A stretch of DNA of 64,000 bases from Candidatus Tagabacteria bacterium (GTDB lineage: Bacteria > Patescibacteriota > Minisyncoccia > GCA-002779875): positions 3,853 to 67,852 of the forward strand of contig CAWGAO010000005.1 of the NCBI GenBank assembly GCA_963820595.1, given 5' to 3'. Under the pieces are notes generated by a model that was not told the DNA's origin, ran no database searches, and was given only the letters and a program-made list of their open reading frames with translations. The position numbers and the translations under genes are program-made. This document shows positions 1,692-44,649 of the stretch, piece after piece (within the stretch, counting starts at the first letter, position 1; the number at the start of each line of letters is the position of its first letter).

Positions 1692-2975
1692 ATGAAAATC
1701 ATCGAGCGAAATGCTTCATCTAGTAATCTCAAGATTATTTTGGCGCCGAGGGCGGGCGCAGAATCGGTAACTGGAATTTTTGCGGTTCGCGCAGGCAGTA
1801 AATACGAAACAACCGAGAATAAAGGAATCGCGCATTTTTGGGAACACATGTCGTTTAAGGGCACGCAAAAACGGCCAACGCCTTTGGACATTACGAAGGA
1901 AATAGAGGGGCGGGGCGGAGATTACAACGCTTTTACTTCGAAAGAAATGACTTGGTATTACATAAAAATTCTTCCTAAGTATCTGGAAGTTGTTTGCGAC
2001 GTTCTCTCCGATATACTGCTGAATTCCGTTATCGACCCGGCAGAAATCGAGAAAGAAAAAGGGGTTATTGTCCAAGAGATCATGAGAGGCCAAGACGACC
2101 CCGAAAATTATGTTATTTCAAAAATGTGGCCCGAATTGCTTTACGGAGACCAGCCTGCCGGTTGGGATATTCTTGGCACCGAAGAAAGCGTTAAAGCGAT
2201 GACCAGAGAAAATTTCACGGAATTTTTGGGAAATCTTTACACTGACGAAAACGCCGTATTCTGTTTAGCGGGGAAAATATCGGACGAAGAAAAAGCATTC
2301 GCCGCAGTTAGTAATTTTTTTTGTGGAATCAGAAAAGGGAAGCTAAAAATCATAAAGCAGCTGACGACCGAAAAGCAGGAAAAACCGGCTCTTCTTGTGA
2401 AAGTTCAAGATACCCAGCAGAGCCATATTGTTTTGGGGGTAAGGGCTTGTAATATCTTTGACCCCAGAAAATACATCTTTCAGGTGCTAGACATTATTCT
2501 GGGCGGAAATACCTGCTCCCGTCTCTTTACGGAAATCAGGGAAAAAAGGGGTTTGGCATATGGCGTATATTCTTTTTTAAGCTGGCAATCGGACATCGGC
2601 TATCTTGCTACATCAACTGGCGTTAATAAAGAAAAAGCGGAAGAAACTGTAAAGGTCATCATTGATGAATGTAAAAAGCTTTGCGACGCTAAAGTTTCCG
2701 ACGAGGAACTGCAAAGAGCGAAAGATTGTCTTATCAGTTCTTCGAAGATGGATATGGAATCTTCTTATGGCGTTGCTTCTTTTGTCGCCAGGCAATGGGT
2801 ATACTACGACAAGATTTTTCCTCTTTCGGAAATAGCAAAAAAAATAGAAGCGGTTACGGCCGAAGATGTACAGACGGTTGCGCGGGAAATTTTTATAGAC
2901 AAAGGGTTGAATTTGGCCATCATCGGTCCTCATGCCGGTATGGAAGAAGAATTTTTGAAAATTCTCAAATTTTAA
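1692..2975 (+). CDS. M16 (pitrilysin/insulinase) family zinc peptidase
   Basis: HxxEH motif (AHFWEHMSFKGT) near the N-terminus. 427 aa. AGGAGGGAGG Shine-Dalgarno directly upstream. Confidence 0.85.
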   Translation: MKIIERNASSSNLKIILAPRAGAESVTGIFAVRAGSKYETTENKGIAHFWEHMSFKGTQKRPTPLDITKEIEGRGGDYNAFTSKEMTWYYIKILPKYLEVVCDVLSDILLNSVIDPAEIEKEKGVIVQEIMRGQDDPENYVISKMWPELLYGDQPAGWDILGTEESVKAMTRENFTEFLGNLYTDENAVFCLAGKISDEEKAFAAVSNFFCGIRKGKLKIIKQLTTEKQEKPALLVKVQDTQQSHIVLGVRACNIFDPRKYIFQVLDIILGGNTCSRLFTEIREKRGLAYGVYSFLSWQSDIGYLATSTGVNKEKAEETVKVIIDECKKLCDAKVSDEELQRAKDCLISSSKMDMESSYGVASFVARQWVYYDKIFPLSEIAKKIEAVTAEDVQTVAREIFIDKGLNLAIIGPHAGMEEEFLKILKF

Positions 2976-2977
2976 TA

Positions 2978-3010
2978 AAAATCCCGCGAGATGCAATCTC
3001 GCGGGATTTT
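2978..3010 (+). terminator. rho-independent terminator
   Basis: AAATCCCGCGAG-atgcaat-CTCGCGGGATTTT immediately after the stop codon. Confidence 0.75.
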
Positions 3011-3075: not shown

Positions 3076-4224
3076 ATGTATAGCCATATGAAAAAAATTT
3101 TACTTTTGCTAAGTCTGTGTGCGATTTTTTTTCCTGCCTCGTCATTTGCTGCTTATTTTAAGACGGGCAGCGGCGTGTTCGTAAACTCGTCGGAAACAAT
3201 ACGGGATAATGTCTACGTTGTAGGCGGAAACGTAGCCGTCTCAAGCGCGATAGACGGAGATATTTTTGCGGCAGGCAGCATGCTTTTCATTTCCGGCAAA
3301 GAGAATGGGGATATTACGGCGGTCGGCGGAACCGTAAATATTGCCGGCGCATCGGCTGAAGACATCCGTCTTATCGGAGGAAACGTGACCATAGGAGGAA
3401 ATTTTAGCGGCGAAGTCATGGTAATCGGAGGGCAAATTATGGTTACGCCGGATACGCAAATCAAGAAAGATTCGCATATAATCGGGGGAATGCTCAGTTT
3501 TAGCGGGAACGCATCGGGCAATTTATCCATGTCGGGCGGGACGATATACATAAACGGCACCATTGAAAAAAATTTGACGATCAAAACCGCAAAAAAAGTG
3601 GTAATCGGTTCAGGCGCGGTGATAAAAGGCAATTTGGAATATTCCGCCCTCTCGGAAGCTTCCATTGAAGAGGGTGCGCAAATACTCGGGATTACCACAT
3701 TTCACAAAATAGAAAAGGCGGGCGCCGGCAGAAATTCCGGTGCTGTGTTCGGATTTTTATTCGGATTATTCGCCTTGTCGTATTTAATTAAATTATTATT
3801 GATTCTTACTGCCACTTATCTTCTGTGGTATATCTGGAGAAAGGATTCGGCTGATATCGTTCGGTTGGCAAAATCGCATTTCGGCCATTCTCTTTTCCGG
3901 GGATTTGTTTTTCTCGTCGCCGTGCCGGCGGCGGCCATTATATCTCTTGTCACCGTTATCGGGGCGTTCGCCGGATTATTCGGCCTTCTGCTCTATGCGG
4001 CAATTCTTATTCTTGCCGTTCCGGTTGCGGTGTTGCTCGCAGCTTCTTTACTTATGAAAAATAGGGCTGATTTCAAGTGGTTCCATATTCTTCTCGGCGC
4101 GGTAGTGTTAATGGCGGTAAACATAATTCCTTTCGTTGGCTGGATTGCCGCGCTAATTGTGTATCTTGCCGCGTTGGGAGCACTGCTTGGCGTTTTACGG
4201 CCCAAATTCCAGCGTTCCGCCTGA
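3076..4224 (+). CDS. membrane protein with signal peptide, bactofilin-like (polymer-forming) beta-helical repeats and a C-terminal multi-TM region
   Basis: N-terminal MKKILLLLSLCAIFFPASSFA. Repeated G-x-V/I-x-I-x-G units (GDITAVGGTVNIAG, IRLIGGNVTIGG, VMVIGGQIMV). Four to five C-terminal hydrophobic helices. Confidence 0.45.
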   Translation: MYSHMKKILLLLSLCAIFFPASSFAAYFKTGSGVFVNSSETIRDNVYVVGGNVAVSSAIDGDIFAAGSMLFISGKENGDITAVGGTVNIAGASAEDIRLIGGNVTIGGNFSGEVMVIGGQIMVTPDTQIKKDSHIIGGMLSFSGNASGNLSMSGGTIYINGTIEKNLTIKTAKKVVIGSGAVIKGNLEYSALSEASIEEGAQILGITTFHKIEKAGAGRNSGAVFGFLFGLFALSYLIKLLLILTATYLLWYIWRKDSADIVRLAKSHFGHSLFRGFVFLVAVPAAAIISLVTVIGAFAGLFGLLLYAAILILAVPVAVLLAASLLMKNRADFKWFHILLGAVVLMAVNIIPFVGWIAALIVYLAALGALLGVLRPKFQRSA

Positions 4225-4296
4225 TGTTGTTCTAGTGAAGTCAAAAAGTAATTAAAAAATCACAAACCACTATTCTATCGATATCGGACATCGATA

Positions 4297-4368
4297 GGCC
4301 TGAACTTGGCCGTTGTCGGCCCGCATAAGGGTATAGAAGAGGAATTTTTGAAGACTCTCAAATTTTAA
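4297..4368 (+). pseudogene. orphan 3' fragment (23 codons plus stop) of an M16 peptidase gene
   Basis: Translates to GLNLAVVGPHKGIEEEFLKTLKF*, compared with GLNLAIIGPHAGMEEEFLKILKF* at the end of the 1692-2975 gene. 57/72 nt are identical. No upstream coding continuation. Confidence 0.65.
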
Positions 4369-4378
4369 AAAAATAAAA

Positions 4379-4401
4379 ATGCCGCGATTTAATCACGGCA
4401 T
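4379..4401. terminator. weak bidirectional hairpin between convergent genes
   Basis: ATGCCG-cgatttaatca-CGGCAT flanked by an A-run and a T-run. Confidence 0.4.
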
Positions 4402-5696: not shown

Positions 5697-5743
5697 GATT
5701 TGTGATATTCTTAAAATAATGCGTATCATTGCCGACCCCGCCC

Positions 5744-5840
5744 TAATTTTACGAGGTAGAACCATAGCGAGACGCTTCGCGCAAAAGGCCTGCCTGCCGG
5801 CAGGCAGGGATGCGCTATTCGCGCCCGCGCCTCGCGAGAC
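5744..5840. repeat. partial copy (H) of the GC-rich palindromic element core
   Basis: About 88% identical by eye to the reverse complement of 15197-15302. Contains ACCCCGCCCTAATTTTAC and the 20-bp perfect palindrome CCTGCCTGCCGGCAGGCAGG (5789-5808). Confidence 0.85.
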
Positions 5841-5920
5841 AGAATTAAGTTTCATTTTTTTTGTTTAAATTCAAATCCGTTTCCAACGGTAAAATTAAAG
5901 CGGGATTAAAGATTTTATTT

Positions 5921-7156
5921 ATGAAATTAATTGCCGACTTTCATATTCATTCAAAATATTCGCGGGCGGTTTCTCAAGATATGACCTTGGAGAATCTTGA
6001 TATTTGGGCGCGGAAAAAAGGAATTCAGGTGATGGGCACGGGCGATTTCACTCATCCCGCATTGGTTTAATGACATTAAAACAAAACTCGAACCGGCGGA
6101 GCCCGGACTTTAATCCGATATCCTAAAGTCGAACGAAGCGTCGGGACTAAATCAGACTTCGACGCGTTTTATGCTTACGGTCGAGATTTCCAGCATTTAT
6201 TCAAAAGGCGGAAAAGTACGGCGCGTGCATAATATTATTTTCTGCTCCATCTATTGAAACTGCGGAAAAAATTAATACAACTTTATCTTTAATCGGTAAT
6301 ATAAAAAGCGACGGCCGGCCTATTTTAGGCCTTGATTCGAAAAAACTTCTTCAGATAATTCTTGGAATTGACCCGAGATGCGTTTTAGTGCCAGCCCACG
6401 CCTGGACGCCGTGGTTTTCAATATTCGGCTCGATGTCCGGGTTCGATTCTATCGAAGAATGTTTTGAGGAATTGAGCGGAAACATTTTTGCCATTGAAAC
6501 AGGGCTTTCGTCGGACCCGGCAATGAATTGGCGGCTTTCAAAACTGGACAAAATCGCGCTAATTTCCAATTCCGATTCCCATTCGCCGCAAAAAATCGGC
6601 AGGGAAGCGAATGTTTTTGACTGCGAACTTTCCTATGACGGGATAATTGATGCAATCAAATCTCATGACCCTGAAAAATTTCTTTTCACTATTGAATTTT
6701 TCCCCGAAGAAGGAAAATATCATTACGACGGCCACCGGGCTCTGCAACGTTTCGATGTCGCCGGAAGAAACCAAAAAAAACAAAGGCATTTGTCCCGTTT
6801 GCCATCGGCCTTTGACTATCGGCGTTTTGTATCGGGTTGATCAAGTTGGCCGACAGACCGGTTGGAGAAGGCGGAAACGGAAAAATTCCTTTTCGAAATC
6901 TGATTCCTTTGAATGAAATTATAGCCGACATTTTTGGATTTGGCGTCGCTTCAATGGCAATTAGAAAGGAATACGAAAAACTTATCAACGCCGTCGGGAA
7001 TGAGTTCAAAATTTTACTGGATGCCGATTATCAGACGCTTAGCAGGGTAACTTCGCTGGCTATCGCCAGGGCATCGTCAGCGTACGCGAAGGGAAAGTCG
7101 AACTGATTCCCGGCTACGACGGCGAATACGGTAAAATTAAAATGTTTAAAGGATGA
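5921..7156 (+). pseudogene. endonuclease Q-like PHP-domain nuclease, multiply frameshifted
   Basis: Pieces lie in three frames. They are MKLIADFHIHSKYSRAVS..GTGDFTHP (5921-6070), PAHAWTPWFSIFGS..SDSHSP..GKYHYDGHRA (6388-6840), CPVCHRPLTIGVLYRV, 6837-7106, and the C-terminal IPGYDGEYGKIKMFKG* (TGA 7154-7156). At least 5 frame changes. Confidence 0.7.
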
Positions 7157-7198
7157 GAAGGAAAAAACAACCAGTCCCATCAATCCCGCCTCTTTTAG

Positions 7199-7394
7199 AA
7201 AAATAAGGAGCCCCGACGTAAGGCGGGACGACTATATTTTTCTTACCCCCTCACTCAAATTTTCATTTAGTTCCTAAGTAATTATTAAATTTAAAAATTA
7301 ATACTCGATTAAAAATGATTTTTTTGAGATAATTTTGATTATGAGTGAGGGGGTGCTCAAAATTATTATTCACTAACGTTCATATAATTTTGGC
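7199..7394 (+). repeat. modular palindromic intergenic element, copy A (M + long C5/G5 stem + M')
   Basis: M is GAAAAATAAGGAGC-ccgacgtaaggcggga-CGACTATATTTTTC (7199-7242). The stem is CCCCCTCACTCA (7246-7257) paired with TGAGTGAGGGGG (7342-7353). M' (7354-7394) ends at the ATG at 7395. Confidence 0.9.
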
Positions 7395-14903: not shown

Positions 14904-15095
14904 TTAGCGAATATAAGGCAATAGTTGTTTTAATTGTTTTCTGCTGATTTTAAGTTCCCTCCATTTTTTCGAGGCAAGCTCTTTTTTCCTTTTTTTCTTC
15001 GCCCGAAAATGAATTAAGCCGCCTTTACGGATTAATACTTTTCCTTTGCGCGTTATTTTTACGCGCTTTAATAATGCTTTGTTGGTCTTTGCCAT
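14904..15095 (-). CDS. rpmI: 50S ribosomal protein L35
   Basis: 63 aa, highly basic (MAKTNKALLKRVKITRKGKV). Position is between infC and rplT. Confidence 0.9.
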   Translation of the reverse strand: MAKTNKALLKRVKITRKGKVLIRKGGLIHFRAKKKRKKELASKKWRELKISRKQLKQLLPYIR

Positions 15096-15302
15096 TTTTA
15101 TTATGAGCGGAGCGAATTATAAAAATGAGCACCCCGCTCTAATTTTACCGTTAAAATCAAAATTGTCATTTATTGAACTAAAGAACCTATTTTAATCTCG
15201 CGAGGTGCGGGCGCGAATAGCGCATCCCTGCCTGCCGGCAGGCAGGCTTTTAGCGCGAAACGCCTCGCCGTTGTTCTATCTTGTAAAATTAGGGCGTGGG
15301 TT
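15096..15302 (-). repeat. modular palindromic intergenic element, copy G (between infC and rpmI)
   Basis: M' abuts the rpmI ATG (sense: GGGGTGCTCATTTTTATAATTCGCTCCGCTCATAATAAAAATG). Outer stem is 15130-15148 paired with 15283-15302 (CCCCGCTCTAATTTTAC / GTAAAATTAGGGCGTGGG). The GC-rich core carries CCTGCCTGCCGGCAGGCAGG (15227-15246). Confidence 0.9.
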
Positions 15303-15318: not shown

Positions 15319-15828
15319 TTATTTAATTCTTTCTATGATGATGTTGATGCCTGTCGGGCCGGATTTTGGGCCTTCAACCACTTTACAATTTTCCGTTATT
15401 AAAGGCAAGATGCGTTCAATTCTCGGCTTTAAAAAATTTCTATCAAGAAATTTCGCCTGACCTCTTAAAATGAGATCAACTTTTATCCGATGGCCTTCTT
15501 TTAAGAACTCCGAAGCTTGTTTTGCTTTTACTTCCAGGTCGTGTTGGGATGTGCCCAGTTTGAGCCGGATGCTTTTTGTTTCGACTTCGCGCGCTTTTTT
15601 TGAGGCTTCCTGCGCTTTCTTTTTCTCTTTGTACTGATATTTTCCGTAATCCATTATCTTGGCAATCGGAGGATTCGCAGTCGGGGATATTTCTATCAGA
15701 TCAAGTCCTTTATCTTTTGCCATTTGGAGCGCGGCCGCAATTTCAAGAACTCCCAGATTATTTCCTTCTTCATCTATCACCCTTAAGGGCGAAACCGCTA
15801 TTTGATTGTTGATGCGTACTTTTTTAAT
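15319..15828 (-). CDS. infC: translation initiation factor IF-3 (probable AUU start)
   Basis: IKKVRINNQIAVSPLRVIDEEGNNLGV... The reading frame extends upstream of the first ATG to ATT at 15828, which is preceded by an in-frame TAA. An AUU start is classical for infC. Confidence 0.9.
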   Translation of the reverse strand: MKKVRINNQIAVSPLRVIDEEGNNLGVLEIAAALQMAKDKGLDLIEISPTANPPIAKIMDYGKYQYKEKKKAQEASKKAREVETKSIRLKLGTSQHDLEVKAKQASEFLKEGHRIKVDLILRGQAKFLDRNFLKPRIERILPLITENCKVVEGPKSGPTGINIIIERIK

Positions 15829-15900: not shown

Positions 15901-16208
15901 TAGCCCCGTACAAATTTTGCGAGATTTGCCTACAAGTCCTCAAAAATCATAGTCGCTTCACTCCTTGATTTTTGGGCTCGCAGGCCGCCCCTCGCCCCGC
16001 CTGCGGCGGGGCTGCGGTCTTCAAATCTCGCTCCAGCTATTCGTGAAAAAGTAGCCCCAGCACAGCAGTTTGCGAGATTTTTCACCGGCAAGCCGCTTCG
16101 CCCTTAAGGGATGTGCCTATTCGGCACGCGCGGCTTGCGAAAGAAATTCTTACTTAGTGATATTGCAATAATTTTTGTAAAAACAATATGGCAAACTGTG
16201 TGCGGGGC
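15901..16208. repeat. compound nested-hairpin repeat region (J) downstream of tmRNA
   Basis: Direct repeat GTAGCCCC(g/a)..TTTGCGAGATTT at 15901-15930 and 16051-16086. Hairpins at 15920-16031, 15995-16013, 16088-16138 and 16054-16208. Confidence 0.8.
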
Positions 16209-16257: not shown

Positions 16258-16269
16258 GCGAATTCACTT

Positions 16270-16614
16270 TGGAGATGGCGAGATTTGAACTCGCGTCAAG
16301 AAGTTAAATGCATTATCGTCTACAAGCTTGTTTCGGTTGAATAAGATTGCGGTTAGAACCGAAAGAAAAACGCAAAATTTTTCCTTCTTTTTAGTCGCTC
16401 TATATCGAAGGTTTATAGAGTCTAGCCCGATAATGACGTCTCGGTCTTTCTATCGTGCATCAAAAGAGAGACGGCTTTTGCTTAAATTTTAAGCAAAAGC
16501 GTAAGCAGGTTGATTCACTGCATTTACATTTGTTGAACGGATTTTAAAGAGGTAACCGATCATCCTCTGCCTGCGAATAACGCATTTTGACTCCCTTCGA
16601 AGCCTTTCATCCCC
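16270..16614 (-). ncRNA. ssrA: tmRNA (SsrA)
   Basis: 5' end GGGGAUGAAAGGCUUCGAAGGG, 3' end GACGCGAGUUCAAAUCUCGCCAUCUCCA. The acceptor stem has a G3:U pair. Tag ORF GCA GUG AAU CAA CCU GCU UAC GCU UUU GCU UAA encodes AVNQPAYAFA*. A helix (GCUUUUGCUUAAA/UUUAAGCAAAAGC) spans the stop. It lies next to smpB. Confidence 0.85.
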
Positions 16615-18321: not shown

Positions 18322-18531
18322 TTTCTAAGGTGGGCGACCCCGCACAAATTTTGCGGGATAAATTAATGGCAGACCGCTGCGCCCAAAAAGGATGAAGCTA
18401 TTCGCTTCCCGCGGTCTGCGAGAGCAAAAATTTATTATTTTATTAAAGGTTTAATTTATAGCGTGAGGGGGTGGCAAAATTTGAGCGGGGTGCTCATTTT
18501 TGCGACTACTCGCTGACGCTTGCAGGCAAAA
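18322..18531 (+). repeat. modular palindromic intergenic element, copy I (secE-nusG gap)
   Basis: Outer stem is GACCCCGCACAAATTTTGC (18336-18354) paired with GGCAAAATTTGAGCGGGGTG (18473-18492). Inner stem is GCAGACCGC/GCGGTCTGC (18369-18377/18411-18419). An M'-like tail (CTCATTTTTGCGACTACTCGCT...) runs to ATG 18532. Confidence 0.85.
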
Positions 18532-19078
18532 ATGGCAAAACAAACATCGGAATTCGGGAGAAATTGGTACGCGGTGCATACCTACGCCGGTTACGAAGAT
18601 GCGGTTGCGCGCAATTTGAAGCAGCGCATCGAATCTTTGGGAATGGAAGACAAGATTTTTAACGTCTTGGTTCCTACCGAAAAGAAAATCCGTATTAAAG
18701 GAGGAAAGCGGAGAACGGTGGAAGAAAAAGTTTATCCCGGCTATGTTCTCGTTGAAATGATAGTCGCCGACGACTCCTGGTATATCGTGCGAAACACTCC
18801 TAGAGTTACTGGTTTCGTCGGTTCGGGCACTACGCCCATACCTCTCCAGAAAGAAGAGGTGGATATGTTGTTTCAGCGGATGGGAGCCAAAGAGCCGAAA
18901 TACAAGTTCGATATCGCGAGTCGGCGATACGGCCAGAATTTTTGACGGACCATTTAAGGATTTCGAAGGAAAAGTACACGCAATTGACGAAGAGCGCGGA
19001 AAGATAAAGGTTCTGGTTTCAATATTCGGCCGGGAGACGCCGGTTGAATTGGACTTTTTGCAGGTGAAAAAGATTTAG
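18532..19078 (+). pseudogene. nusG: transcription termination/antitermination factor NusG, one frameshift near 18925
   Basis: MAKQTSEFGRNWYAVHTYAGYE (NGN domain) runs to 18945. The KOW part, [52 protein letters not shown], is in another frame and ends with TAG at 19076-19078. Confidence 0.85.
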
Positions 19079-19150
19079 AAAAATAAGGAGCGATAGCGAC
19101 TATATTTTTCGTAAAAAATTATTATTCACTAACGTTTATATAATTTTGGC
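19079..19150 (+). repeat. modular palindromic intergenic element, minimal copy B (M directly abutting M')
   Basis: AAAAATAAGGAGCgataGCGACTATATTTTTC is followed by GTAAAAAATTATTATTCACTAACGTTTATATAATTTTGGC, then the ATG of rplK. Confidence 0.9.
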
Positions 19151-19577
19151 ATGGCAAAGAAGATTAAAACAATAATAAAACTTCAGATTCCCGCCGGAAA
19201 AGCGAATCCCGCCCCTCCGGTCGGGCCGGCTTTGGGCCAGCACGGCCTCAATATTGGCGAGTTCGTTTCGAGATTCAATGAAGCTACAAAGGAGATGGGA
19301 GATGATATTATTCCCGTTGAAATCACGGTTTATGAAGACCGCACTTATCAGTTTAAACTGAAAACCCCGCCAGCATCGGATTTATTGCGCAAAGCAGCCG
19401 GCATCGAAAAGGGCGCAAGCAACCCTTTAACTTCCAAAGTCGGAAAAATATCAAAGGCCAAAATTCGTGAAATTGCCGAACGAAAAATGGAAGATTTGAA
19501 CGCCAACGATATCGATGCGGCGCAAGAAAATTATAATGGGCACCGCGCGGAGTATGGGGATAGAGATTAAAGATTAA
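19151..19577 (+). CDS. rplK: 50S ribosomal protein L11 (frameshift about 50 nt before the end)
   Basis: [32 protein letters not shown] is canonical. After about 19525 the conserved C-terminus [15 protein letters not shown] is in the +1 frame and ends at 19577. Confidence 0.9.
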
Positions 19578-19699: not shown

Positions 19700-19719
19700 A
19701 ATAGCGGGTTTTATTTTTT

Positions 19720-19783
19720 GTCCCGACGCTTCATTGTAGTTCTTTTAAAATAAAGAAGTCGGGATCCCGGCTTTACGTCGGGA
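19720..19783. repeat. 64-bp palindromic repeat, copy 1 (inverted partner at 44650-44713)
   Basis: GTCCCGACGCTTCATTGTAGTTCTTTTAAAATAAAGAAGTCGGGATCCCGGCTTTACGTCGGGA matches the reverse complement of 44650-44713 at 59/64 positions. Confidence 0.9.
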
Positions 19784-19889
19784 AAAACCCGAAAATTCTG
19801 GCGGAAAATCTGCGGATTTTCTAAGCCGGGCTCTTTCCGTGCGCGGAGAGAGAATCTACTCGCGTCTGTGGACGCAAAAGGAGGAGTTT

Positions 19890-23881: not shown

Positions 23882-25509
23882 ATGATAAGAGATATTTTGT
23901 CGAGACGAAATTAGAAAAGGCGCTTAAAGCTCTTTATCCGGATATTGCTTATCCCGAAATTTCTGTTATCCGGAACGAGAATCCCGTTTTCGGAGATTAT
24001 GGCTTTGCCGTGATTGCTTTGGCTTCAAGAATAGGCAAGAATCCAAGAGAGATTGCCGAAGAATTTAAAGAGAAAATTTCGGCTTCGTCAAAAATCAGCC
24101 GCTATGTTTCAAAAATTGAAGTCGCCGGTCTGGGCTTTTTGAATTTTTGGCTTTCGGAAAAAGGTCTAGAAGAAGGATTAAAGAATCTAGACAAAAAGTT
24201 TACCCGCCAAGGGCGGGAAAAAATTTCCCTCGATTATCTTGATGCCAACCCGACCGGGCCGGTTCATTTGGGTCATGCCAGAAGCGGTTTTTATGGCGAC
24301 GTTTTGGCTAATATTTTGGAATTTTACGGCCATAAAGTTTCGAGGGAATTTTACGTCAATAACGCAAAATCGAGTCGGTACAAATTCAATCTCTTGGAAA
24401 AACAGCATTGGGGCAGGGGGAAGAATACAAGCACGAACAGCTTTTGAAAATTTTGGAAAAGCCGGAAGTAAAAAAGAAATTAAAAACGTTCAAGGAAGTA
24501 AAAGAGGCGAGTTTGCTCGCCGAAGCTTCAGCGAAGGCGGGATTTTATATCGCAGGATTGATTCAAAAAGAAAACGAAAAATTTTTGAAAAAATGTCGCC
24601 AAAATAAAATTTGATTTATTTTTTGAGGAGGAAAAAGTTTATTCATCGGGTAAGGTAAAAGAAATCATTGAAAAACTAAAGAAAGCAGACGTGACGTATG
24701 AAAAAGACGGCGCTTTGTGGTTTAAATCAACGCAATACGGCGATAGTGAAGACAAGGTGATTATAAGAAGCACGGGCGAGCCGACTTATTTTGTGCCGGA
24801 CATATATTATCATTTGGACAGGTTGATTAAGAGAAAGAACGACAAAGTTATCAATATATTCGGCGCTGACCATTACGGCGCCATTGCCAGAGTAAAAGGC
24901 GCTTTGGCGGCTTTGGGAATTGATACAGAAAAAATAGTTTATCTTTTGGTCCAGATGGTGCGCTTGATAAAAGGCGGCGAAGAGCTGAAAATGCAAAAAA
25001 GAAAAGGCGTGTTCGTGACCTTGGAAGAATTGATTAAAGATGTTGGCCTGGACGCTGCAAGGTTTTTCTTTCTAATGCGGTCGTTGGATACGCATTTGGA
25101 TTTTGATTTGGATTTGGCGAAGGAGCGTTCCAAAAAGAATCCGGTTTATTATGTCCAGTATGCCCATGCCCGGGCGTGTTCGATAATAAGAAAGTCAAAA
25201 GTCTCCGTCCGAGGCGGATTCGTCTTCAGCGGAAAAATTCAAAATTCAAAAGAGAGAAATTTAATTTTAAAACTCATCCAATTTCCGGAAGTTGTTGAAG
25301 ACATCGCCAAAGATTATCAAGTTCATCGCTTAACGACTTACGCATACGAATTCGCGCAGGTTTTTACGGATTTTTACGAAAATGTTCCGGTTTTGACTGC
25401 CGAAACGGAGGAACTGAAAAAATCCCGCCTTGTCTTGGTTTCCATTGCCAGAAAAATTTTAGAGAGAAGTCTATCATTGATGGGTATTTCCGCTCCGGAG
25501 AAGATGTAG
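23882..25509 (+). pseudogene. argS: arginyl-tRNA synthetase, at least 3 frameshifts
   Basis: Fragments are 23882 (MIRDILS), 24010-24447 (NPTGPVHLGHARSG, a HIGH-type motif), 24408-24614, and 24691-25509 (GADHYG..., C-terminal anticodon-binding part ending ISAPEKM*). Confidence 0.85.
25477..25508 (+). repeat. 32-bp direct repeat, copy 1 (native argS 3' end)
   Basis: TTGATGGGTATTTCCGCTCCGGAGAAGATGTA. The second copy at 26453-26484 differs at 1 nt. Confidence 0.95.
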
Positions 25510-26366: not shown

Positions 26367-26388
26367 GCCCCTTGGTTTTTAGCGAGGG

Positions 26389-26448
26389 TTTTTTTATTTT
26401 TAAATGTCGTTTGGAAACTAAGTCTCCAATTTATTTTTTCGTCAGATG
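26389..26448 (-). pseudogene. decayed duplicate of the dedA 3' end plus its downstream sequence
   Basis: About 85% identical to 27064-27122 (TTTTTTATTTTTAAAT[G/C]TCGTTTGGAAACTAAG[T/C]CTCC...). The remnant has an in-frame stop. Confidence 0.8.
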
Positions 26449-26452
26449 GTCC

Positions 26453-26484
26453 TTGATGGGCATTTCCGCTCCGGAGAAGATGTA
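26453..26484 (+). repeat. 32-bp direct repeat, copy 2 (orphan argS 3' end)
   Basis: TTGATGGGCATTTCCGCTCCGGAGAAGATGTA. 31/32 identical to 25477-25508. It ends in TAA where the native copy has TAG. Confidence 0.95.
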
Positions 26485-27040: not shown

Positions 27041-27070
27041 ATCCGTTGGCACATCGCAACGGATTTTTTA
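27041..27070. terminator. bidirectional rho-independent terminator
   Basis: ATCCGTTG-gcacatcg-CAACGGAT followed by T6. Confidence 0.75.
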
Positions 27071-27091
27071 TTTTTAAATCTCGTTTGGAAA

Positions 27092-27747
27092 CTAAGCCTC
27101 CGAGTTGTTTTTTTGTCGGATGCCCCGCAGAAATTCAATAATAGCGGGCAGGATTGAAATGATAATGATAGCGAAAATAACCAAAGAAAAATTTTGTTTG
27201 ATTAGCGGAATATTTCCGAAATAATATCCGCCGAAAATGAAAAGCGCCGGCCAGGTTATGCCGCCAATAATATTGTAGCTGATGAAACGCCAATAACTCA
27301 TTTGTCCGATGCCCGCGACAAACGGCGCGAAAGTGCGGATAATAGGAATGAAGCGGGCGATAATAATCGTTTTTCCGCCGTGTTTTTCATAAAATTGATG
27401 GGTGCGCTCCAGATATTTCTTATTTAAAAAACGGAGATTTTCTTCTGTGAGAATATTTTCGGGCCGACAAAACGGCCTAGCCAATAATTTACAGTGTCGC
27501 CCAAAACAGCCGCGAGAGCCAAAATAATGAAAAGCCAAACTACATTGAAAGAGCCGACGGCCGCGAAAGCGCCGGCGGCAAAAAGGATGGAATCGCCCGG
27601 CAGAAACGGAATTACAACCAGTCCGGTTTCGCAGAAAATAATCAGAAAAAGAAGCGAATAAGTCCAAGCCCCGTATATTTGAATAATCGCGCCCAAGTGT
27701 TTGTCGAGATGGAGTGCAAAACTGATAATCGTTTTTATTAAATCCAT
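27092..27747 (-). pseudogene. dedA: DedA family membrane protein, one frameshift near 27435
   Basis: The N-terminal fragment 27424-27747 (..[22 protein letters not shown]..) and the C-terminal fragment ([35 protein letters not shown]..) are in different frames. Confidence 0.8.
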
Positions 27748-28214: not shown

Positions 28215-28247
28215 AAAGTCCGTTTGAAAAACTTGAACGGACTTTTT
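28215..28247 (+). terminator. rho-independent terminator
   Basis: AAAGTCCGTT-tgaaaaacttg-AACGGACTTT followed by TT. Confidence 0.7.
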
Positions 28248-28253
28248 AATTTT

Positions 28254-28483
28254 CCAAAAATTAAGAAAGTCGCTTTTATGCGACCGACTATAATTTTTGA
28301 GAACCCCGCTCTAATTTTGCCGTAGATGTTTCAATAAAGGTTTAACAAATCTAAAAAGGCCGAGTTGTTCTCATGGCGCAGAGCCGAAATAGGCCGAGCG
28401 AAGCGAGTGCGCCACCGTAGCAATATTTCGCAAAATTAGGGCGGGGTTGAAAGGGCTGTTAAATTAAGTACTATTAACATTAT
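28254..28483 (+). repeat. modular palindromic intergenic element, copy F (upstream of ileS)
   Basis: M-like CCAAAAATTAAGAAAGTCGCttttatGCGACCGACTATAATTTTTGAG. Stem is AACCCCGCTCTAATTTTGC (28301-28320) paired with GCAAAATTAGGGCGGGGTT (28430-28448). The tail runs to ATG 28484. Confidence 0.85.
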
Positions 28484-31400
28484 ATGCAAGGAAAGGAGGA
28501 AAAATTAAGTTTTCCCGAGCGGGAAGAGAAGATTTTGGAGTTCTGGAAAAAGAACAAGATTTTTGAAAAATCCGTTGAGCAGAGGAAGGGCGAAAAAGAA
28601 ATTCGTTTTTTACGAAGGCCCGCCGACGGCCAACGGCCAGCCAGGCATTCACAGCATGGAAGCGCGTGTTTTTAAAGATATTGTTTTGCGCTATAAAGCA
28701 ATGCGGGGATTTTATTGCAAGCGAAAAGCCGGCTGGGACACCCACGGTTTGCCCGTAGAAATCCAGGTTGAAAAAGAACTTGGTTTAAAAAATAAAAAAG
28801 AAATTGAGGAATATGGCATTGAAAAATTTATAGAGAAATGCAAGGAAAGCGTTTGGCGTTACAGGAATGAGTGGGAAAATACTGACATACCGGATGGCTT
28901 ACTGGCTGGATATGAAAAACGCTTACGCGACAATGACGAACGATTACATCGAAACTCTTTGGTGGATTTTCAAAGAGATCGACAAGCGAAAATTGCTTTA
29001 CGAGGATTATAAAATCGTTCCTTGGTGTCCGCGTTGCGGAACCGCTCTTTCTTCGCACGAGGTCAGCCAGGGTTATCGCAAAATAAAAGAAGATTCCGTT
29101 TATATAAAATTTCCCGTGAAAGGAAGACCGAATACTTATTTTTTGGTTTGGACAACTACGCCCTGGACATTGCCGTCCAATGTTGCTTTGGCGATAAATC
29201 CCAAAATAACGTATACCATAATCGAAAAAGACGGACGAGCGCTTGATTTTGGCGAAAAATCGCCTTTCCGTTATCGATGGTGAATACAGGATTGGCGAAG
29301 AAAAACCGGGAACTGATTTAATCGGCAGAGAGTATGACCCCTTATACTCGCGGAGCGCTTAACCCAGACCAAGTCGAGGGGCTTATAAAATTTATGCCGC
29401 GGATTTTGTTTCCGCTGACGACGGCACGGGTATTGTCCATATTGCTCCGGCTTTCGGCGAAGACGATATGAAACTGGGCAAAGCGAATAATCTCCCGGTT
29501 TTAAGTCTTGTCGACGAAGAAGGAAAAATGCTGACGCCGAATTACAAATGGAACGGAATGTTTATCAAAGACGCCGACCCGTTGATTGTCGAAGATTTGC
29601 GCCAAAGAAATCTTCTTTATAAAACCGAAAGCTACGAGCATGATTATCCTTTTTGCTGGCGCTGCGACAGTCCTTTGATGTATTATGCCAAAACTTCCTG
29701 GTGGCTGAAGACAACAGGCGTAAAACAGCAGATGATTAAGGAAAATAAAAAAATTCACTGGCACCCGGATTATTTGAAAGACGGCCGTTTCGGCGAATGG
29801 CTGAACGAGTTGCGGGATTGGGCGATTTCGCGCGAGCGTTATTGGGGAACGCCGCTTCCGATATGGCGATGTCCTGATTGCAAGCGTTACGAAGTTATCG
29901 GCTCAAGAGAAGAGTTGAAGAAAAAAACCGTGAAATCGGGAAACAATTATTTTTTGATGAGGCATGGATTTTCGGAAGCCAATCAGAAAAATATCAATAA
30001 TTCAAATATCGAAACAAATCATTACAAACTGACTCCAAAAGGCAAAAAAGAAGTTTTGAAAGCGGCCCAAAAATTGAAAGAAGCAAAAAATAGATTTGAT
30101 TTTCTCCTCCGATTTTTTGAGAACAAAGGAAACGGCGCTGTTGGCGGCTGAAACTTTGGGCATTCCAGAAAAGGATGTTGTTTTTGACGAACGATTGCGC
30201 GAAATAAATACGGGAATTTTCGACGGAAAATCCCGCGCCGAATATCACAAATATTTTTCTTCGCTTCTGGAAAAATTCACCAAAACCCCGCCTCAAGGCG
30301 AAAATTTAACCGAATTGAAAAATCGCATCACGCAGTTTTTGTATGAAATAGAAAATAAGTACAAAGGTAAAAACATTTTGATTGTCAGCCATGAATATCC
30401 GATTTGGATGTTAACTGCGGGAGCAAAAGGAATGACTAACGAGGAAGCGGTGGCGACTAAAGGGGAAAAAAGACGATTTTATTAAAACAGCCGAAGTTAT
30501 GAAACTGGATTTTACGCCTTTGCCTCATGACAAGAATTTTGTTTTGGATTTTCACCGGCCATATATAGATAAAATCATATTGAAATGCGACAAATGCGGC
30601 GGCGACATGATTCGCATTAAAGATGTTTGTGATGTTTGGTTTGATTCCGGTTCGATGCCGTTCGCCCAAAATCACTTTCCATTTTCTATCCCTAAAAAAA
30701 ATTTACTCTATCCGGCGGACTATATTTGTGAAGCGATTGACCAGACAAGAGGGTGGTTTTATACGCTGCTTGCGGTTGCGATTTTGTTGGGACGAAAAGC
30801 GCCTTATAAAAACGTGCTTTCTTTGGGTTTGGTTTTGGACGCCGAGGGGCAAAAAATGTCAAAATCGCGCGGCAACGTGGTGGTGCCAGGAGAATTGATG
30901 AACAAATACGGCGCCGATGCGGTGCGCTGGTATTTTTATACCATCAATCAGCCGTGGGACGAAAAATTATTTAAAGAGGAGGATGTCCAGGCGGCTTTGC
31001 GAAGATTTATTTTGATTTTTTGGAATTGCTTTTCCTATTGGAAAATGTACGCGGGTAAAAATTTTAAAATCAATCCGCCAGCTGGCGGACCCAAATTGGT
31101 TATCAATAAATGGCTGCTGGCGAAATTTAATCAAATTGCCTTAGAAGTTCCCAAATTACTCGATAATTACGATATCGTTTCAGCGGCGCGGTTGATAGAA
31201 GATTTTGTAATTGAAGATATCTCTCATTGGTATATTCGCCGCATGCGCGGAAATAACTGAAAAATTCCGGTTCCCGAGAAGCCAAAGAAATAAATGCGGT
31301 TTTGGGCCAAGTGATTATGGACACAGCAAAATTACTTGCGCCGTTTATGCCTTTTGTTTCAGAAACGGTTTACCGGGAAACGGGCGGGAAAAAGAAAAGC

Positions 31401-31947
31401 ATTCATTTGGAGAATTTCCCGACGGTCCAAAAATCCTGACGGTAAAAGAAAAACAGCTTTTAAAGAAAATGGAGAAGCGTGAGAGATGACGTTTCCCAGA
31501 GCATTGGAGGTAAGGGCAAGAGCGGGGATAAAAGTGAGACAGCCGTTGTCGGAAATGGCTACCAAAATCAAAAATCCTAAAATTGAAAACTGGGCAAGAG
31601 ATTATTAGATTGACGAGGAGAGGCGAATTTCAAAAAGATCGTTTTCGACAAGAATTTAAAGATGAAATAAAAATTAACACCGATGATCACTGAAGAATTG
31701 AAAGAAGAAGGAATTTTGCGGGATTTAATCCGTCAATTTCAGGATATCCGCAAAAAAGAAGGCCGTAAGCCCAATGAAATGCTGATTTTTTACGTTGCCG
31801 TCGATGTGAAAGGAAAAGAATTTTTGATTAAATATGCAAAAGAATCTGAAAAAGGCGATTAGCGCGAAATCCATCGTGGTCCGCGCCAACATTGAAGATG
31901 GATACGAAGTCAAAGCGGGAGAATTGAATTTTAAGGTCAAATTATGA
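28484..31947 (+). pseudogene. ileS: isoleucyl-tRNA synthetase with an inserted histidine-phosphatase domain, at least 7 frameshifts
   Basis: Fragments are 28484 ([21 protein letters not shown]), 28563-29012 ([12 protein letters not shown]), 28867-29283, 29468-30151, 30096-30485 and 30499-31260 (KMSKSRGN). The tail pieces end at TGA 31945-31947. Confidence 0.9.
29925..30495 (+). other. histidine phosphatase (PGAM-superfamily) domain embedded in ileS
   Basis: [12 protein letters not shown] (RHGxxxxN), [24 protein letters not shown] and LIVSHEYPI. It lies between the IleRS motifs [18 protein letters not shown] and DFHRPYIDKIILKCDKCGG. Confidence 0.75.
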
Positions 31948-33987: not shown

Positions 33988-34560
33988 GTGTCTTATCATA
34001 TTTATCAAACCGAGGGGATCATTCTCGGAAAAAATGATGTCGGCGAAGCGGACCGCCGTTTCAGTATTTTGACGGCTGAATTCGGCCGGATAGACGCGGC
34101 GGCGCAAGGCGTGCGTTATCTCAAATCCAAACTTCGCTATAGTCTCGATATTTTCGTCCATGCGAGATTGGGGCTCGTAATGACGAGGGAAGATTCTTGG
34201 CGAATCGTTGATGCCGAAGAATTAAACAGCTGGTCGCAAATTCGCGCGAATCCCGAAAAATTGGCCGCGGCTTTCCGGATTGCCGATTTAATCAATCGGA
34301 TGGTGCGAGGCCAGGAATCTGATGCCGTCCTTTGGGAGGAGGTTAAAAAATCTTTTATTTTTTTGGAGCAAGCCAAAGATTCGGATGACAAAAAAATATT
34401 GCAGGCTTTCGAACTGCTGACGCAGTTGAAAATTCTTTCCCATTTGGGATATGTGGCCGAACAAGATAAATGGCTGAATATGCCGCTTGAAGAGGCTCAA
34501 AAAAAAGAATCTTTGATGGTATCCACAATCAACAAAGCCATCGAAGAAAGTCAGCTTTAG
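33988..34560 (+). CDS. recO: DNA repair protein RecO (short form, GTG start)
   Basis: YQTEGIILGKNDVGEADRRFSILTAEFGRIDAAAQGVR is typical of the RecO N-terminal OB fold. Confidence 0.8.
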   Translation: MSYHIYQTEGIILGKNDVGEADRRFSILTAEFGRIDAAAQGVRYLKSKLRYSLDIFVHARLGLVMTREDSWRIVDAEELNSWSQIRANPEKLAAAFRIADLINRMVRGQESDAVLWEEVKKSFIFLEQAKDSDDKKILQAFELLTQLKILSHLGYVAEQDKWLNMPLEEAQKKESLMVSTINKAIEESQL

Positions 34561-34772
34561 AAAAATAATGAGCCCTGCCTGCCGGCAGGCAGGGAAGCGA
34601 CTATATTTTTCTTAACCCCCATCTTTTACACCCGACCATTTTAAGGTTAATATTAAAGATATTCTATGATGCAAACTTTTATGCAAACTTCAATGTTGTA
34701 TATATTCTGGTCGGTGTTAAAAGAGGGGGTGATAATTTTATAAAATTCACTTCGTTCGCTAGTAAAATTATC
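34561..34772 (+). repeat. modular palindromic intergenic element, copy C
   Basis: M is AAAAATAATGAGC-CCTGCCTGCCGGCAGGCAGG-GAAGCGACTATATTTTTC. Stem is CCCCCATCTTTTACACCCGACCA (34616-34638) paired with TGGTCGGTGTTAAAAGAGGGGG (34708-34729). M' runs to ATG 34773. Confidence 0.9.
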
Positions 34773-40630: not shown

Positions 40631-40632
40631 AG

Positions 40633-44634: not shown

Positions 44635-44649
44635 TGTTTTTACTCCTTT

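Follow-up and report, generated by a model that had tools for sequence, protein, structure and literature searches.

The DNA analysed here (the window) is a 64-kb stretch of a Patescibacteria (CPR) genome. Three of its intergenic gaps (7198-7394, 34560-34772 and 40633-40808) have a common layout in which a hairpin, module M, is followed by a long inverted-repeat stem and by a second hairpin, module M'. The preliminary description had proposed this layout, and we found it at all three places with a covariance model of M and with fold z-scores (Table 1). The full elements of copies A, C and D had z-scores of -5.7, -6.5 and -5.2, respectively, and none of the shuffles (0/200) folded equally well. 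In the window, the M covariance model matched six copies on the plus strand with E = 1e-11 to 6e-5 and two copies on the minus strand with E = 3e-5 and 1e-4. The earlier estimate of at least 12 copies in the 64 kb also stood, as the nine further loci that it listed all hold related modules. The elements are 72-212 bp long, occupy the gaps between annotated genes and have no coding capacity. Copies A, B and C start with TTTAG followed by AAAAATAA, as had been described; the assembly has frameshifts in endoQ, nusG and several other genes, and the stop-codon statements for copies A and B use reconstructed frames.

Table 1. Palindromic elements and modules in the 64-kb window
Feature	Position	Strand	Description
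Copy A, module M	7198-7242	+	Hairpin with extended GC apex, directly 3' of TTTAG; covariance-model match 7188-7253, 45.2 bits, E = 1e-6
Copy A, central element	7246-7353	+	Terminal inverted repeats CCCCCTCACTCA / TGAGTGAGGGGG flank AT-rich interior
Copy A, module M'	7354-7394	+	Hairpin with 3' end TATAAT-TTTGGC, flush with ATG at 7395
Copy B	19078-19150	+	M 19078-19110, then directly M' 19111-19150, without central element; nusG/rplK gap; covariance-model match 49.1 bits
Copy C, module M	34560-34611	+	Apex with inserted 11-bp GC hairpin; directly 3' of recO TAG; covariance-model match 39.3 bits
Copy C, central element	34616-34729	+	Terminal inverted repeats CCCCCATCTTTTACACCCGACCA / TGGTCGGTGTTAAAAGAGGGGG; arms 34616-34638 / 34708-34729
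Copy C, module M'	34730-34772	+	Hairpin reaching ATG at 34773
Copy D, module M	40633-40665	+	Begins 2 nt past AI-2E transporter stop codon; covariance-model match 45.4 bits
Copy D, central element	40670-40773	+	Terminal inverted repeats CCCCCTCTTTTACACCCAAA / TTTGGGGTTAAAAGAGGGGG; arms 40670-40689 / 40754-40773
Copy D, module M'	40774-40808	-	Inverted M, reaches metG ATG (40809); covariance-model match on minus strand 40768-40820, 37.8 bits
Copy E	52840-52941	+	ssb/rpsR gap (both genes on minus strand); M 52840-52873 is the top-scoring copy, 65.8 bits
Copy F	28255-28446	+	Degenerate M 28255-28299, then S1-class element with inverted repeats CCCCGCTCTAATTTTGC / GCAAAATTAGGGCGGGG; upstream of ileS; 36.3 bits
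S1-class element	5736-5904	+	CCCCGCCCTAATTTTAC ... GTAAAATTAAAGCGGG, GC hairpins inside; 80% identity over 170 nt to 15133-15299, inverse orientation
S1-class element and M'	15093-15300	-	infC/rpmI gap
Two S1-class elements	15904-16200	-	Downstream of tmRNA gene; one encloses minus-strand M 15941-15974 (match 15931-15983, 35.1 bits)
S1-class element and M'-like hairpin	18338-18534	+	S1-class element 18338-18490; hairpin reaches nusG ATG
S3-class MITE	51066-51176	+	Upstream of recA; terminal inverted repeat CCCGTTAGAAGT; flanking 6-mers GTTCGC / GTTTGC
S3-class MITE	53393-53527	-	rpsF/ssb gap; perfect 6-bp target-site duplication, ATGAAT on gene strand

The central parts had been described as long stems. 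Inverted repeats are present, but in copies A, C and D they are only terminal repeats of 12-22 bp around a non-complementary AT-rich interior. In copy A the arms are 7246-7257 and 7342-7353, and complementarity is limited to about 13 bp per end, while copy D as a whole is 69% self-complementary over 174 nt. Mismatches of the G·U type and of the A·C type were 15 versus 16 in the long stems, which thus carry no RNA-strand signal. The description of M' as an inverted M held for copy D but not for copies A, B and C (about 12 bits or less), in which M' is a related hairpin with an inner part like inverted M and a different outer stem. The M' modules of copies A and B are 97% identical across 39 nt and precede unrelated genes.

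The elements are modular, in that copy B has no central element and one M is enclosed in an S1-class element. Besides M, copy E contains two further hairpins, the short AACCCCGCCTTTGGCGGGGTT (52876-52896) and one whose apex resembles that of M (52905-52941). The three stem classes proposed earlier exist, but they are separate element families, nested or juxtaposed, and not parts of one element. Among them, the CCCGTTAGAAGT class (S3) is a true MITE with 6-bp target-site duplications. Its ends, CCCGTTAGAAGT / ACTTCTAACGGG, form 12-13-bp terminal inverted repeats, and its members are 97-164 bp long; the duplication is a perfect 6 bp in 4 of 10 copies and matches at 5/6 positions in 2 more, and seven of the 10 copies abut an ATG. 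In the rpsF/ssb gap, the left copy of the duplication retains the rpsF TGA and the right copy retains the ssb ATG. At the loci compared, the M-stem-M' composites and S1 showed no clean target-site duplication.

At their downstream end, copies A and B read TATAAT-N6-ATG. Scans for sigma-70 and terminator consensus sequences gave a mild and not decisive enrichment, and the promoter reading fits copies A and B well and copies C, D and E poorly. On the sense strand, neither M nor the long stems gave a terminator call. An intrinsic (Rho-independent) terminator has a GC-rich stem, a loop of 3-8 nt and an immediate T tract; M does not have this build, its T run pairs with its own A run, and we rejected it as such a terminator. 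Since canonical GC-stem/T-tract terminators occur elsewhere in the window, the elements are a different thing, and at one locus of another genome (L015) a canonical terminator is placed after M. The RNA-level roles suggested earlier (RNase III-type processing, insulation between cistrons, terminator/promoter cassettes) thus have little backing in the sequence, and a terminator or promoter role of the elements is possible. About three-quarters of the window genes have no Shine-Dalgarno sequence, and the organism seems to use mostly leaderless or Shine-Dalgarno-less starts. For this reason we dropped the idea that the elements displace Shine-Dalgarno sequences; the sole clear case is rpmI, where the S1-class insertion lies between the old Shine-Dalgarno sequence (AAGGAGG past the infC stop) and the rpmI ATG.

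Orthologous gaps in relatives

The gap between the AI-2E transporter gene and metG is 178 nt in the window versus 6, 21 and 9 nt in the relatives L001, L002 and L003, and the gap between recO and the next gene is 212 nt versus 19, 19 and 31 nt in L207, L208 and L209. For rpsF/ssb, the window has 137 nt; the gap could be measured at 38 related loci, and at 34 of them it is -4 to +10 nt. For ssb/rpsR, the window has 115 nt, and most of 80 related loci have 2-30 nt. At the orthologous sites of most relatives compared, copies C, D and E and the rpsF/ssb S3 element are missing. In a few lineages the rpsF-ssb-rpsR gaps are occupied by other elements, namely a full M-stem-M' composite in L125 and, in L132, S3 elements in each of the two gaps. 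The element of copy E is common to L124 with 87.5% identity, whereas the flanking genes are 72-75% identical and their third codon positions 52-60%. Because the shared element is more conserved than its flanking genes or third codon positions, it appears to be under constraint and not junk.

The covariance model found 8 M matches in the 64-kb window versus 3 in 570 kb of related loci, so that the extra copies anticipated in the preliminary description do exist. Its view that the gaps are not ordinary gene-specific UTRs agrees with the finding that relatives do not keep them. Taken together, the elements are insertions, not conserved UTRs, and they are polymorphic among relatives and expanded in this genome.

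Module M: structure and distribution

Other genomes have module M too: it is conserved among Patescibacteria and present in unrelated phyla. The hairpin has 29 bases, and its core, AAAAATAAGGAGC-loop-GCGACTATATTTTT, is near-invariant among some 60 Patescibacteria genomes. Outside this group, high-copy mosaic repeats of sponge-associated Arenicellales and Poriferihabitaceae contain it, as do some Clostridia, and the core is about 90% identical between phyla. Altogether, the same modules were found in more than 60 independent assemblies from different projects.

Compensatory changes, which had been predicted for the stems, were seen: in the lower stem of M, pair 11-42 is GC (20), CG (16) or AU (7), and pair 20-32 exchanges G-C for A-T. 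The conserved non-Watson-Crick features are a tandem G·A and a bulged A, and the third pair of the lower stem is a fixed defect. Single M arms with three mismatches were only about two times as frequent as in shuffles. Of 81 distinct copies, 54 have a GC/GC-closed apical loop of the type GNA or GNNA, and loops of four bases read GNYA instead of GNRA. The apex thus matches the GCGNAGC/GCGNNAGC rule of DNA mini-hairpins, with G·A pairs alongside and a CTA trinucleotide immediately 3'. Such mini-hairpins are extraordinarily stable as DNA, and their RNA counterparts are much less stable (PMC13037366). Their known natural uses are phage and plasmid priming sites (the primase sites of G4-type phages and ssiA) and the hairpin promoter of the N4 virion RNA polymerase (PMC13037366), whereas M is a dispersed chromosomal repeat.

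In Patescibacteria, M often lies 1-2 nt past tRNA or tmRNA genes or at stop codons. At least 18 cases in sense orientation lie within -7 to +11 nt of a stop codon, and in no case does M abut a stop codon in antisense. It adjoins smpB-ssrA in at least nine loci of different classes. The 3' flank of tRNA-linked M is complementary to the tRNA 3' end, sometimes across the whole T-arm, and in other genomes tRNA- or tmRNA-linked M is followed by GTAG and a GC-rich palindrome; this unit is missing from the window copies. In Clostridia, a conserved unit of about 150-200 nt with its own terminator contains M as an internal hairpin. The orientation of M relative to genes is random in Arenicellales (16 same, 20 opposite), and on a complete Arenicellales chromosome its strand shows no replichore pattern. 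In the window, M is on the majority-gene strand in 6 of 8 copies, and the top-scoring M (copy E) is, like its L124 orthologue, antisense to the local genes.

We compared M with known RNA motifs. A kink-turn was ruled out by hand against the alignment, as the 3-nt bulge beside the G·A pairs is missing, and a hammerhead core, also checked by hand, was ruled out by the missing CUGANGA and GAAA. Loop B of the hairpin ribozyme has only the UAUAUU hexamer in common with M, and the 11-nt tetraloop receptor and the UAA/GAN motif do not match in register. A small ORF in Clostridia was rejected as well, since the frame is not kept between L007 and L014. In the window, Rfam 15 at gathering score matched only tmRNA and nothing at M, and at E <= 1 six M-bearing loci gave no match at M. 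M matched no described RNA or repeat family.

The absence of transposase and integrase genes noted earlier was confirmed by a search for their Pfam domains, of which none occurs in the 60 ORFs of the window. Clustering of the ORFs near M in over 100 sponge-symbiont and CPR loci revealed none that recurs and looks like a transposase, and a tblastn search with IS200 TnpA, a weak test against partial genomes, gave no match. A phage or plasmid origin was rejected: four matches to a long-loop pattern in IMG/VR are probably chance, there was no phage match, and two plasmid matches are partial and inside genes. The window copies are dispersed, one per gap, and form no array, which sets them apart from CRISPR arrays and from TIGR-Tas stem-loop arrays; the latter are tandem arrays beside a Nop-domain gene, with box C/D motifs (PMC12045711). 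Within the collection of papers searched, none ties Patescibacteria to REP, RAYT, MITE or the M sequence.

Origin and role of the elements

Like MITEs, the window elements are small (below about 300 bp), non-coding and intergenic, with terminal inverted repeats and presence/absence polymorphism, and S3 has its fixed 6-bp duplication. Unlike MITEs, they are built of interchangeable nested hairpin modules, one of which is cross-phylum; they have no known parent insertion sequence, and the M-stem-M' composites show no clear duplication. The earlier comparison with MITEs and the suggestion of selfish palindromic DNA are supported by the empty orthologous gaps, the S3 duplications and the copy expansion. 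In Neisseria, the Correia elements (CREE/NEMIS) are palindromic, intergenic and about 100-160 bp long, lie inside transcription units, form mRNA hairpins, may contain promoters that point outward, and can influence termination as well as processing. This functional picture is the best fit for copies A and B. Correia elements have 26-bp inverted repeats, a TA duplication and an IHF site and are confined to one genus; they have no sequence relation to the window elements, whose ends differ and whose duplication is 6 bp (S3) or unclear to absent.

BOX elements of Streptococcus pneumoniae and the BIME/REP mosaics of enterobacteria are high-copy, intergenic combinations of short hairpin units in varied order, and REP sequences, imperfect palindromes headed by GTAG, are species-specific and linked to a Y1 (RAYT) transposase, none of which turned up in the weak tblastn test above. 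The modular hairpin build is similar, and tRNA-linked M with GTAG and its palindrome resembles a REP unit. The differences are the missing GTAG unit in the window copies and the cross-phylum occurrence of M; no BOX or BIME module is known to be shared between phyla. Rickettsia palindromic elements also spread as palindromic repeats in a reduced genome without a visible transposase, but they are typically in frame within genes and translated, whereas all window copies lie between stop and start codons.

We consider it probable that the window contains a modular, nested family of small non-coding, non-autonomous mobile palindromic (MITE-like) elements, inserted in short operon spacers and in each other. 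At least three element types are combined: an M/M' hairpin pair, which can occur by itself (copy B); elements whose terminal inverted repeats are CCCCC... or CCCCGCTCTAATTTTGC and which sit between M and M'; and the CCCGTTAGAAGT element, an independent MITE with 6-bp target-site duplications, often at a start codon. With spacers of so few bases, any insertion that is tolerated would come to lie flush with the stop and start codons, and tolerance would come from the folding of each element back on itself. At least in copies A and B, the element would supply a TATAAT box 6 nt ahead of the ATG, so that the operon may be divided into an upstream part that ends in a hairpin and a downstream gene with a new promoter. 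Module M would serve as the conserved recognition or nucleation hairpin of the family, and because its apex obeys the rule for ultra-stable DNA mini-hairpins, a role in single-stranded DNA (mobilisation or replication) is favoured over a role in RNA. Our searches yielded neither an autonomous element nor a transposase with matching ends, so we infer mobilisation from its footprints only.

Several observations stand against the mobile-element reading. The M-stem-M' composites have no clean target-site duplication, the identity of the M core between phyla is far above that usual for transposable-element ends, the conservation of the element shared with L124 speaks for constraint, the sense bias at stop codons and the adjacency to tRNA and tmRNA genes resemble an RNA 3'-end function, and the promoter idea fits copies C, D and E poorly. 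The sense bias and the position at stop codons and tRNA or tmRNA 3' ends also favour an alternative that we regard as unlikely, in which M and the neighbouring hairpin are a functional RNA at transcript 3' ends (processing, stabilising or termination-related), the composites are selected cis-regulatory punctuation, and the patchiness reflects recruitment and loss, not transposition. The position of M beside smpB-ssrA in different classes, the covariation of its lower stem, the conserved tandem G·A and bulged A, the conservation of the L124 element beyond synonymous sites, and the Clostridia unit with its own terminator would all agree with it. However, the orthologous gaps of most relatives lack the element, copy E and its L124 orthologue are antisense to the local genes, orientation in Arenicellales is random, and the loops follow the DNA GNA/GNNA rule instead of the RNA GNRA rule. 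In addition, M is not a terminator where a canonical one comes after it (L015), a trailer paired with the tRNA acceptor strand would impede tRNA folding, and M has no Rfam match.

The mini-hairpin apex with CTA just 3' could instead mark M as a host-useful single-stranded-DNA signal, such as an entry hairpin for primase or RNA polymerase on the lagging-strand template or incoming single-stranded DNA, with palindromic flanks grown by template switching. The natural mini-hairpins of G4-type phages, ssiA and N4 (PMC13037366) offer a precedent, a G·A-stabilised hairpin is possible on one strand only, most window copies are on the majority-gene strand, and flanks complementary to tRNA 3' ends, up to a whole T-arm, are the expected product of quasi-palindrome correction. 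We nevertheless judge this quite improbable, as the complete Arenicellales chromosome shows no replichore-linked strand switch, plasmids and phages, where such signals are best known, gave almost no matches, and it leaves unexplained why most related genomes carry none or one. Chance likeness of AT-rich intergenic DNA, or an assembly artefact, could draw on the many frameshifts and on the weak enrichment of single M arms, but it can practically be discounted, being already refuted by the covariance-model E-values and fold z-scores and by the recurrence of the modules in independent assemblies.

Along with the mobile-element reading, we tentatively put forward a further proposal that we would call possible but not likely: M may be an undescribed strand-specific hairpin motif (AAAAATAAGGAGC-GNA/GNNA-GCGACTATATTTTT with a covarying lower stem) that has a definite job across phyla. 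It might be the single-stranded-DNA recognition hairpin of new hairpin-dependent mobile elements, with an enzyme common to Patescibacteria, sponge-associated Gammaproteobacteria and Clostridia, or else a signal that Patescibacteria use generally at 3' ends, transcribed together with tRNAs, tmRNA and mRNAs and equipped with a trailer that senses or imitates the acceptor end of tRNA.

The genomes of Patescibacteria are tiny and densely packed, and they are usually called poor in mobile DNA. Here, operons that relatives keep contiguous are split by palindromic insertions at a density of about a dozen per 64 kb, and the lineage is a natural experiment in how operons tolerate or exploit inserted hairpins when most genes seem leaderless. 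The M hairpin, nearly fixed over its length from Saccharibacteria to sponge symbionts, gives further work a concrete and inexpensive start. Should it mark a new mechanism of mobilisation or a new RNA 3'-end signal, cultured Saccharibacteria would permit direct tests.

Layout of the gap elements

The preliminary description of this DNA had proposed a family of nested-palindromic intergenic elements with at least 12 copies. In the three type copies (A, C and D), the claimed layout was confirmed: a hairpin module (M) after the upstream stop codon, a central inverted-repeat element, and a related hairpin (M') that reaches the ATG of the next gene. Related modules were also present in the other nine gaps, so that the tally of 12 loci stands. 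The "long stems" of the central elements held for their ends, as the outer 12-22 bp of each are complementary, but not as continuous stems, because the interior is not complementary. A covariance model trained on 46 M hairpins from other genomes found 8 matches in the window (E = 9e-11 to 1e-4).

Folding of copies A, C and D produced three hairpins, or for D a long M:M' pairing, with z-scores of -5.7, -6.5 and -5.2, respectively. The transition mismatches in the central-element arms were 15 of the G·U type and 16 of the A·C type; such an even split would be expected of DNA inverted repeats, not of stems selected in one RNA strand.

The element family is modular and nested. While copies A, C and D carry a central element between M and M', copy B (the nusG/rplK gap) is M and M' with nothing in between, and copy F (upstream of ileS) is M and an element of S1, a separate class of inverted-repeat elements, without M'. 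M'-like hairpins come after S1 elements at infC/rpmI and secE/nusG, and past the tmRNA gene, an S1 element encloses one M. M' of copy A, before an MFS transporter gene, and M' of copy B, before rplK, are 97% identical over 39 nt including the ATG; M' is therefore part of the element, not of the genes.

The window also contains other repeats. A 69-nt repeat with CCCGAC...GTCGGG hairpins, a further family unrelated to M, occurs in inverse orientation (93% identity) downstream of rplK and beside the alanine dehydrogenase gene. The NUDIX gene region has two pairs of direct repeats (80% identity over 80 nt and 94% over 35 nt), and each long copy has a hairpin resembling a terminator, with TTTTTTATTTTTAAAT after it. 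Downstream of recA, a 374-nt gap contains a perfect palindrome of 34 nt, CGACACGATTTGTCCATATGGACAAATCGTGTCG, next to two further strong hairpins.

Insertion sites and gene starts

Where compared, the gaps that carry the elements are mostly far shorter in relatives. The AI-2E transporter/metG spacing is 178 nt in the window and 6, 21 and 9 nt in three relatives, and that between recO and its neighbour is 212 nt versus 19, 19 and 31 nt. Since recO of locus L209 likewise ends CTT TAG, the TTTAG before M is native sequence, with M directly 3' of it. Among 80 metagenomic rpsF-ssb-rpsR loci, the rpsF/ssb and ssb/rpsR gaps are mostly -4 to +10 and 2 to 30 nt, as compared with 137 and 115 nt in the window. 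The ssb/rpsR element is common to the window and locus L124; L125 has a different, complete M-stem-M' composite in that gap, and L132 has CCCGTTAGAAGT elements in both gaps. M is found 8 times in 64 kb of the window versus 3 times in 570 kb of relatives. By the gap comparisons, the window elements are insertions.

The CCCGTTAGAAGT...ACTTCTAACGGG class, judging from its ends and flanks, is a textbook MITE with a full transposition signature. The window and six other loci together yielded ten such elements of 97-164 bp. Four are flanked by perfect 6-bp direct repeats, two more by repeats matching at 5 of 6 positions, and seven abut an ATG. The rpsF TGA and the ssb ATG overlap in relatives (ATGA). 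Because ATGAAT was duplicated at this overlap around the rpsF/ssb element of the window, the stop codon now lies in the left copy and the start codon in the right copy.

Shine-Dalgarno sequences are absent from about three quarters of the window genes (SD-like sequence at only about 12 of 53 starts), and many starts have a (TG-)TATAAT-like -10 box 6-8 nt upstream of the ATG. One example is the empty recO site of L207, which reads TGGTATAAT-AAAATAA-ATG. Leaderless starts thus seem to be common, which suggests frequent leaderless mRNAs in this lineage. Copies A and B end in TATAAT-TTTGGC-ATG, which would fit a portable leaderless promoter; copies C, D and E (E being that of the ssb/rpsR gap) fit less well. 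The infC/rpmI element parts an old AAGGAGG from the rpmI ATG, and ordinary GC-stem/T-tract terminators are present elsewhere in the window. A terminator/promoter-cassette role of some copies is plausible from these sequences. The motif (T)CAT-N-AATTTT(T)GGC directly 5' of ATG precedes differing genes in differing genomes, "empty" spacers included, and could represent a core promoter or start context specific to the clade, or else a footprint of M'.

The window (41.7% GC) was placed by MetRS, RecO and SSB in Patescibacteria (Parcubacteria/Paceibacteria, near "Candidatus Tagabacteria"), with 65-82% protein identity to the nearest public relatives. It carries housekeeping genes (ribosomal proteins, aminoacyl-tRNA synthetases, recA, recO, ssb, gyrB, ftsK, tmRNA). 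Many conserved genes are split into two to five reading-frame pieces, endoQ requiring at least four frame changes. The same breakage occurs in the related ENA contig L209, and the genes are intact in NCBI relatives; long-read indel error is probably the cause, not mass pseudogenisation. Three M16-peptidase paralogues are present, and the 3' ends of the first two ORFs share 77% DNA identity, including sequence just beyond the stop codon.

Module M in other bacteria

One genome per GTDB species was scanned for the M pattern, and at least 119 stretches matched. Among the matches listed, about 60 Patescibacteria assemblies have one or two copies each, and the labels of M-bearing assemblies include Saccharibacteria, Kaiser-, Campbell-, Vogel-, Taylor-, Nomura- and Kerfeldbacteria, Paceibacterota and Minisyncoccia. 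The matches listed also include three complete sponge-associated genomes (one Arenicellales, two Poriferihabitaceae) with many copies, where M is one of the hairpins in mosaic repeats (210-280 nt) that lie dispersed or in tandem. The tandem arrays in these chromosomes consist of units with four hairpins, M included, and gave at least 38 and at least 19 pattern matches in the portions analysed, with no orientation bias relative to genes. In four Clostridia MAGs, also among the matches listed, M is inside a conserved unit of about 150-200 nt adjoining tRNA genes, with no Rfam match. This unit combines M having a 20-nt apical insert with a covarying CNNCC-GGN-GGNNG hairpin; in L007 and L121, which have it in tandem copies, it opens with the initial 19 nt of the neighbouring tRNA-Leu gene.

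The 29-nt core of M is almost invariant, while its flanks are variable yet complementary. At pair 11-42, 20 sequences have GC, 16 have CG and 7 have AU; covariation is also seen at pairs 10-43 and 8-45, and core pair 20-32 switches between G-C and A-T. Nearly all copies have a mismatch or bulge at the third flank pair. At least 12 other genomes have the complete stop-M-stem-M'-ATG cassette, placed between differing gene pairs, and compensatory stem changes, by which the preliminary description had proposed to judge the family, were found there (CCCAGCACC/GGTGCTGGG, CCCTGCAC/GTGCAGGG, TCCGACACC/GGTGTCGGA).

In Patescibacteria, M starts 1-2 nt past the 3' end of tRNA-Val, Ala, Arg, Gln, Glu, His, Tyr and Thr genes and likewise of tmRNA genes, and adjoins smpB-ssrA in at least nine loci. 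The 3' flank of M is complementary to the 3' strand of the tRNA itself, covering the whole T-arm in some loci, and a second hairpin follows whose end repeats the 3' terminus of the tRNA. M starts -7 to +11 nt from a sense stop codon in at least 18 loci; no M abutting an antisense stop was found in the Patescibacteria loci. As a normal terminator comes after both hairpins in L015, M as a terminator was ruled out there.

In some Patescibacteria, a tRNA gene, M and an inverted copy of the whole T-arm and acceptor strand make up a long, perfect hairpin that has M as its tip, followed by a conserved segment (...GCGTGGTCAGGCGGA...). Downstream of the window tmRNA gene (tag AVNQPAYAFA) lie first an ordinary terminator hairpin and next two S1 elements; elsewhere in many Patescibacteria, M directly follows the tmRNA gene.

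The evidence on whether M works as RNA or as DNA is mixed. Its sense-strand bias in Patescibacteria and its position next to tRNA and tmRNA genes favour RNA, as does the element shared by the window and L124, which is 87.5% identical over 104 nt versus 75% for ssb, 72.5% for rpsR and 52-60% at third codon positions. On the DNA side, the best window M and its orthologue in L124 run antisense to their operon, and the loop of this shared element has flipped from AAA to TTT, as inversion across a DNA palindrome would produce. In Arenicellales, M orientation is random relative to genes (16 versus 20). Of 81 distinct apical loops, 54 are GNA or GNNA with GC/GC closure, the rule for extraordinarily stable DNA mini-hairpins, of which RNA versions melt far lower (PMC13037366); the four-base loops are GNYA, not GNRA. 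The complementarity to tRNA ends, we infer, could arise without selection by template switching at a stable hairpin.

Coordinates of features in the window and in loci of other genomes
Feature	Locus	Position	Strand
M	window	52831-52883	+
M	window	19068-19121	+
M	window	40623-40676	+
M	window	7188-7253	+
M	window	34556-34620	+
M	window	28246-28309	+
M (M' of copy D)	window	40768-40820	-
M	window	15931-15983	-
69-nt repeat	window	19718-19786; 44647-44715	
NUDIX-region repeat, long	window	26369-26448; 27043-27122	
NUDIX-region repeat, short	window	25474-25508; 26450-26484	
34-nt palindrome	window	52428-52461	
tmRNA gene	window	16269-16614	-
M16-peptidase paralogues	window	1692-2975; 3076-4224; 38304-39587	
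M16-peptidase 3' ends	window	2903-2989; 4296-4387	
Frame-broken endoQ	window	5861-7157	
Frame-broken nusG	window	18532-19077	
Frame-broken infC	window	15319-15780	
Frame-broken rplK	window	19151-19570	
Frame-broken argS	window	24010-25509	
Frame-broken ileS	window	28563-31900	
Frame-broken pheT	window	55176-57160	
Frame-broken gene	window	34773-36643	
(T)CAT-N-AATTTT(T)GGC	window	7377-7394; 19133-19150	
(T)CAT-N-AATTTT(T)GGC	L123	685-695	
(T)CAT-N-AATTTT(T)GGC	L002	2865-2885	
(T)CAT-N-AATTTT(T)GGC	L172	2330-2359	
Empty recO site	L207	10574-10592	
Mosaic-unit array	L019	1950-2850	
Mosaic-unit array	L074	3700-4420	
Mosaic-unit array	L117	6600-7750	
Clostridia M unit	L007	3520-3930	
Clostridia M unit	L121		
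Clostridia M unit	L014	280-480	
Clostridia M unit	L111	4880-5060	
tRNA-M long hairpin	L029	1178-1378	
tRNA-M long hairpin	L066	1480-1680	-
tRNA-M long hairpin	L106	3896-4130	
tRNA-M long hairpin	L020	1600-1810	-

Taken together, the palindromic gap elements are real and are not a set of gene-specific UTRs. The M hairpin exceeds what is known for MITE/REP-like elements: searches of Rfam and the literature found no counterpart to its cross-phylum conservation, strand-specific non-canonical pairs and exact placement at gene 3' ends. The gap elements are best classed as a new variant of bacterial MITE/REP-like elements, one that is modular and nested and has expanded in the genome of the window.
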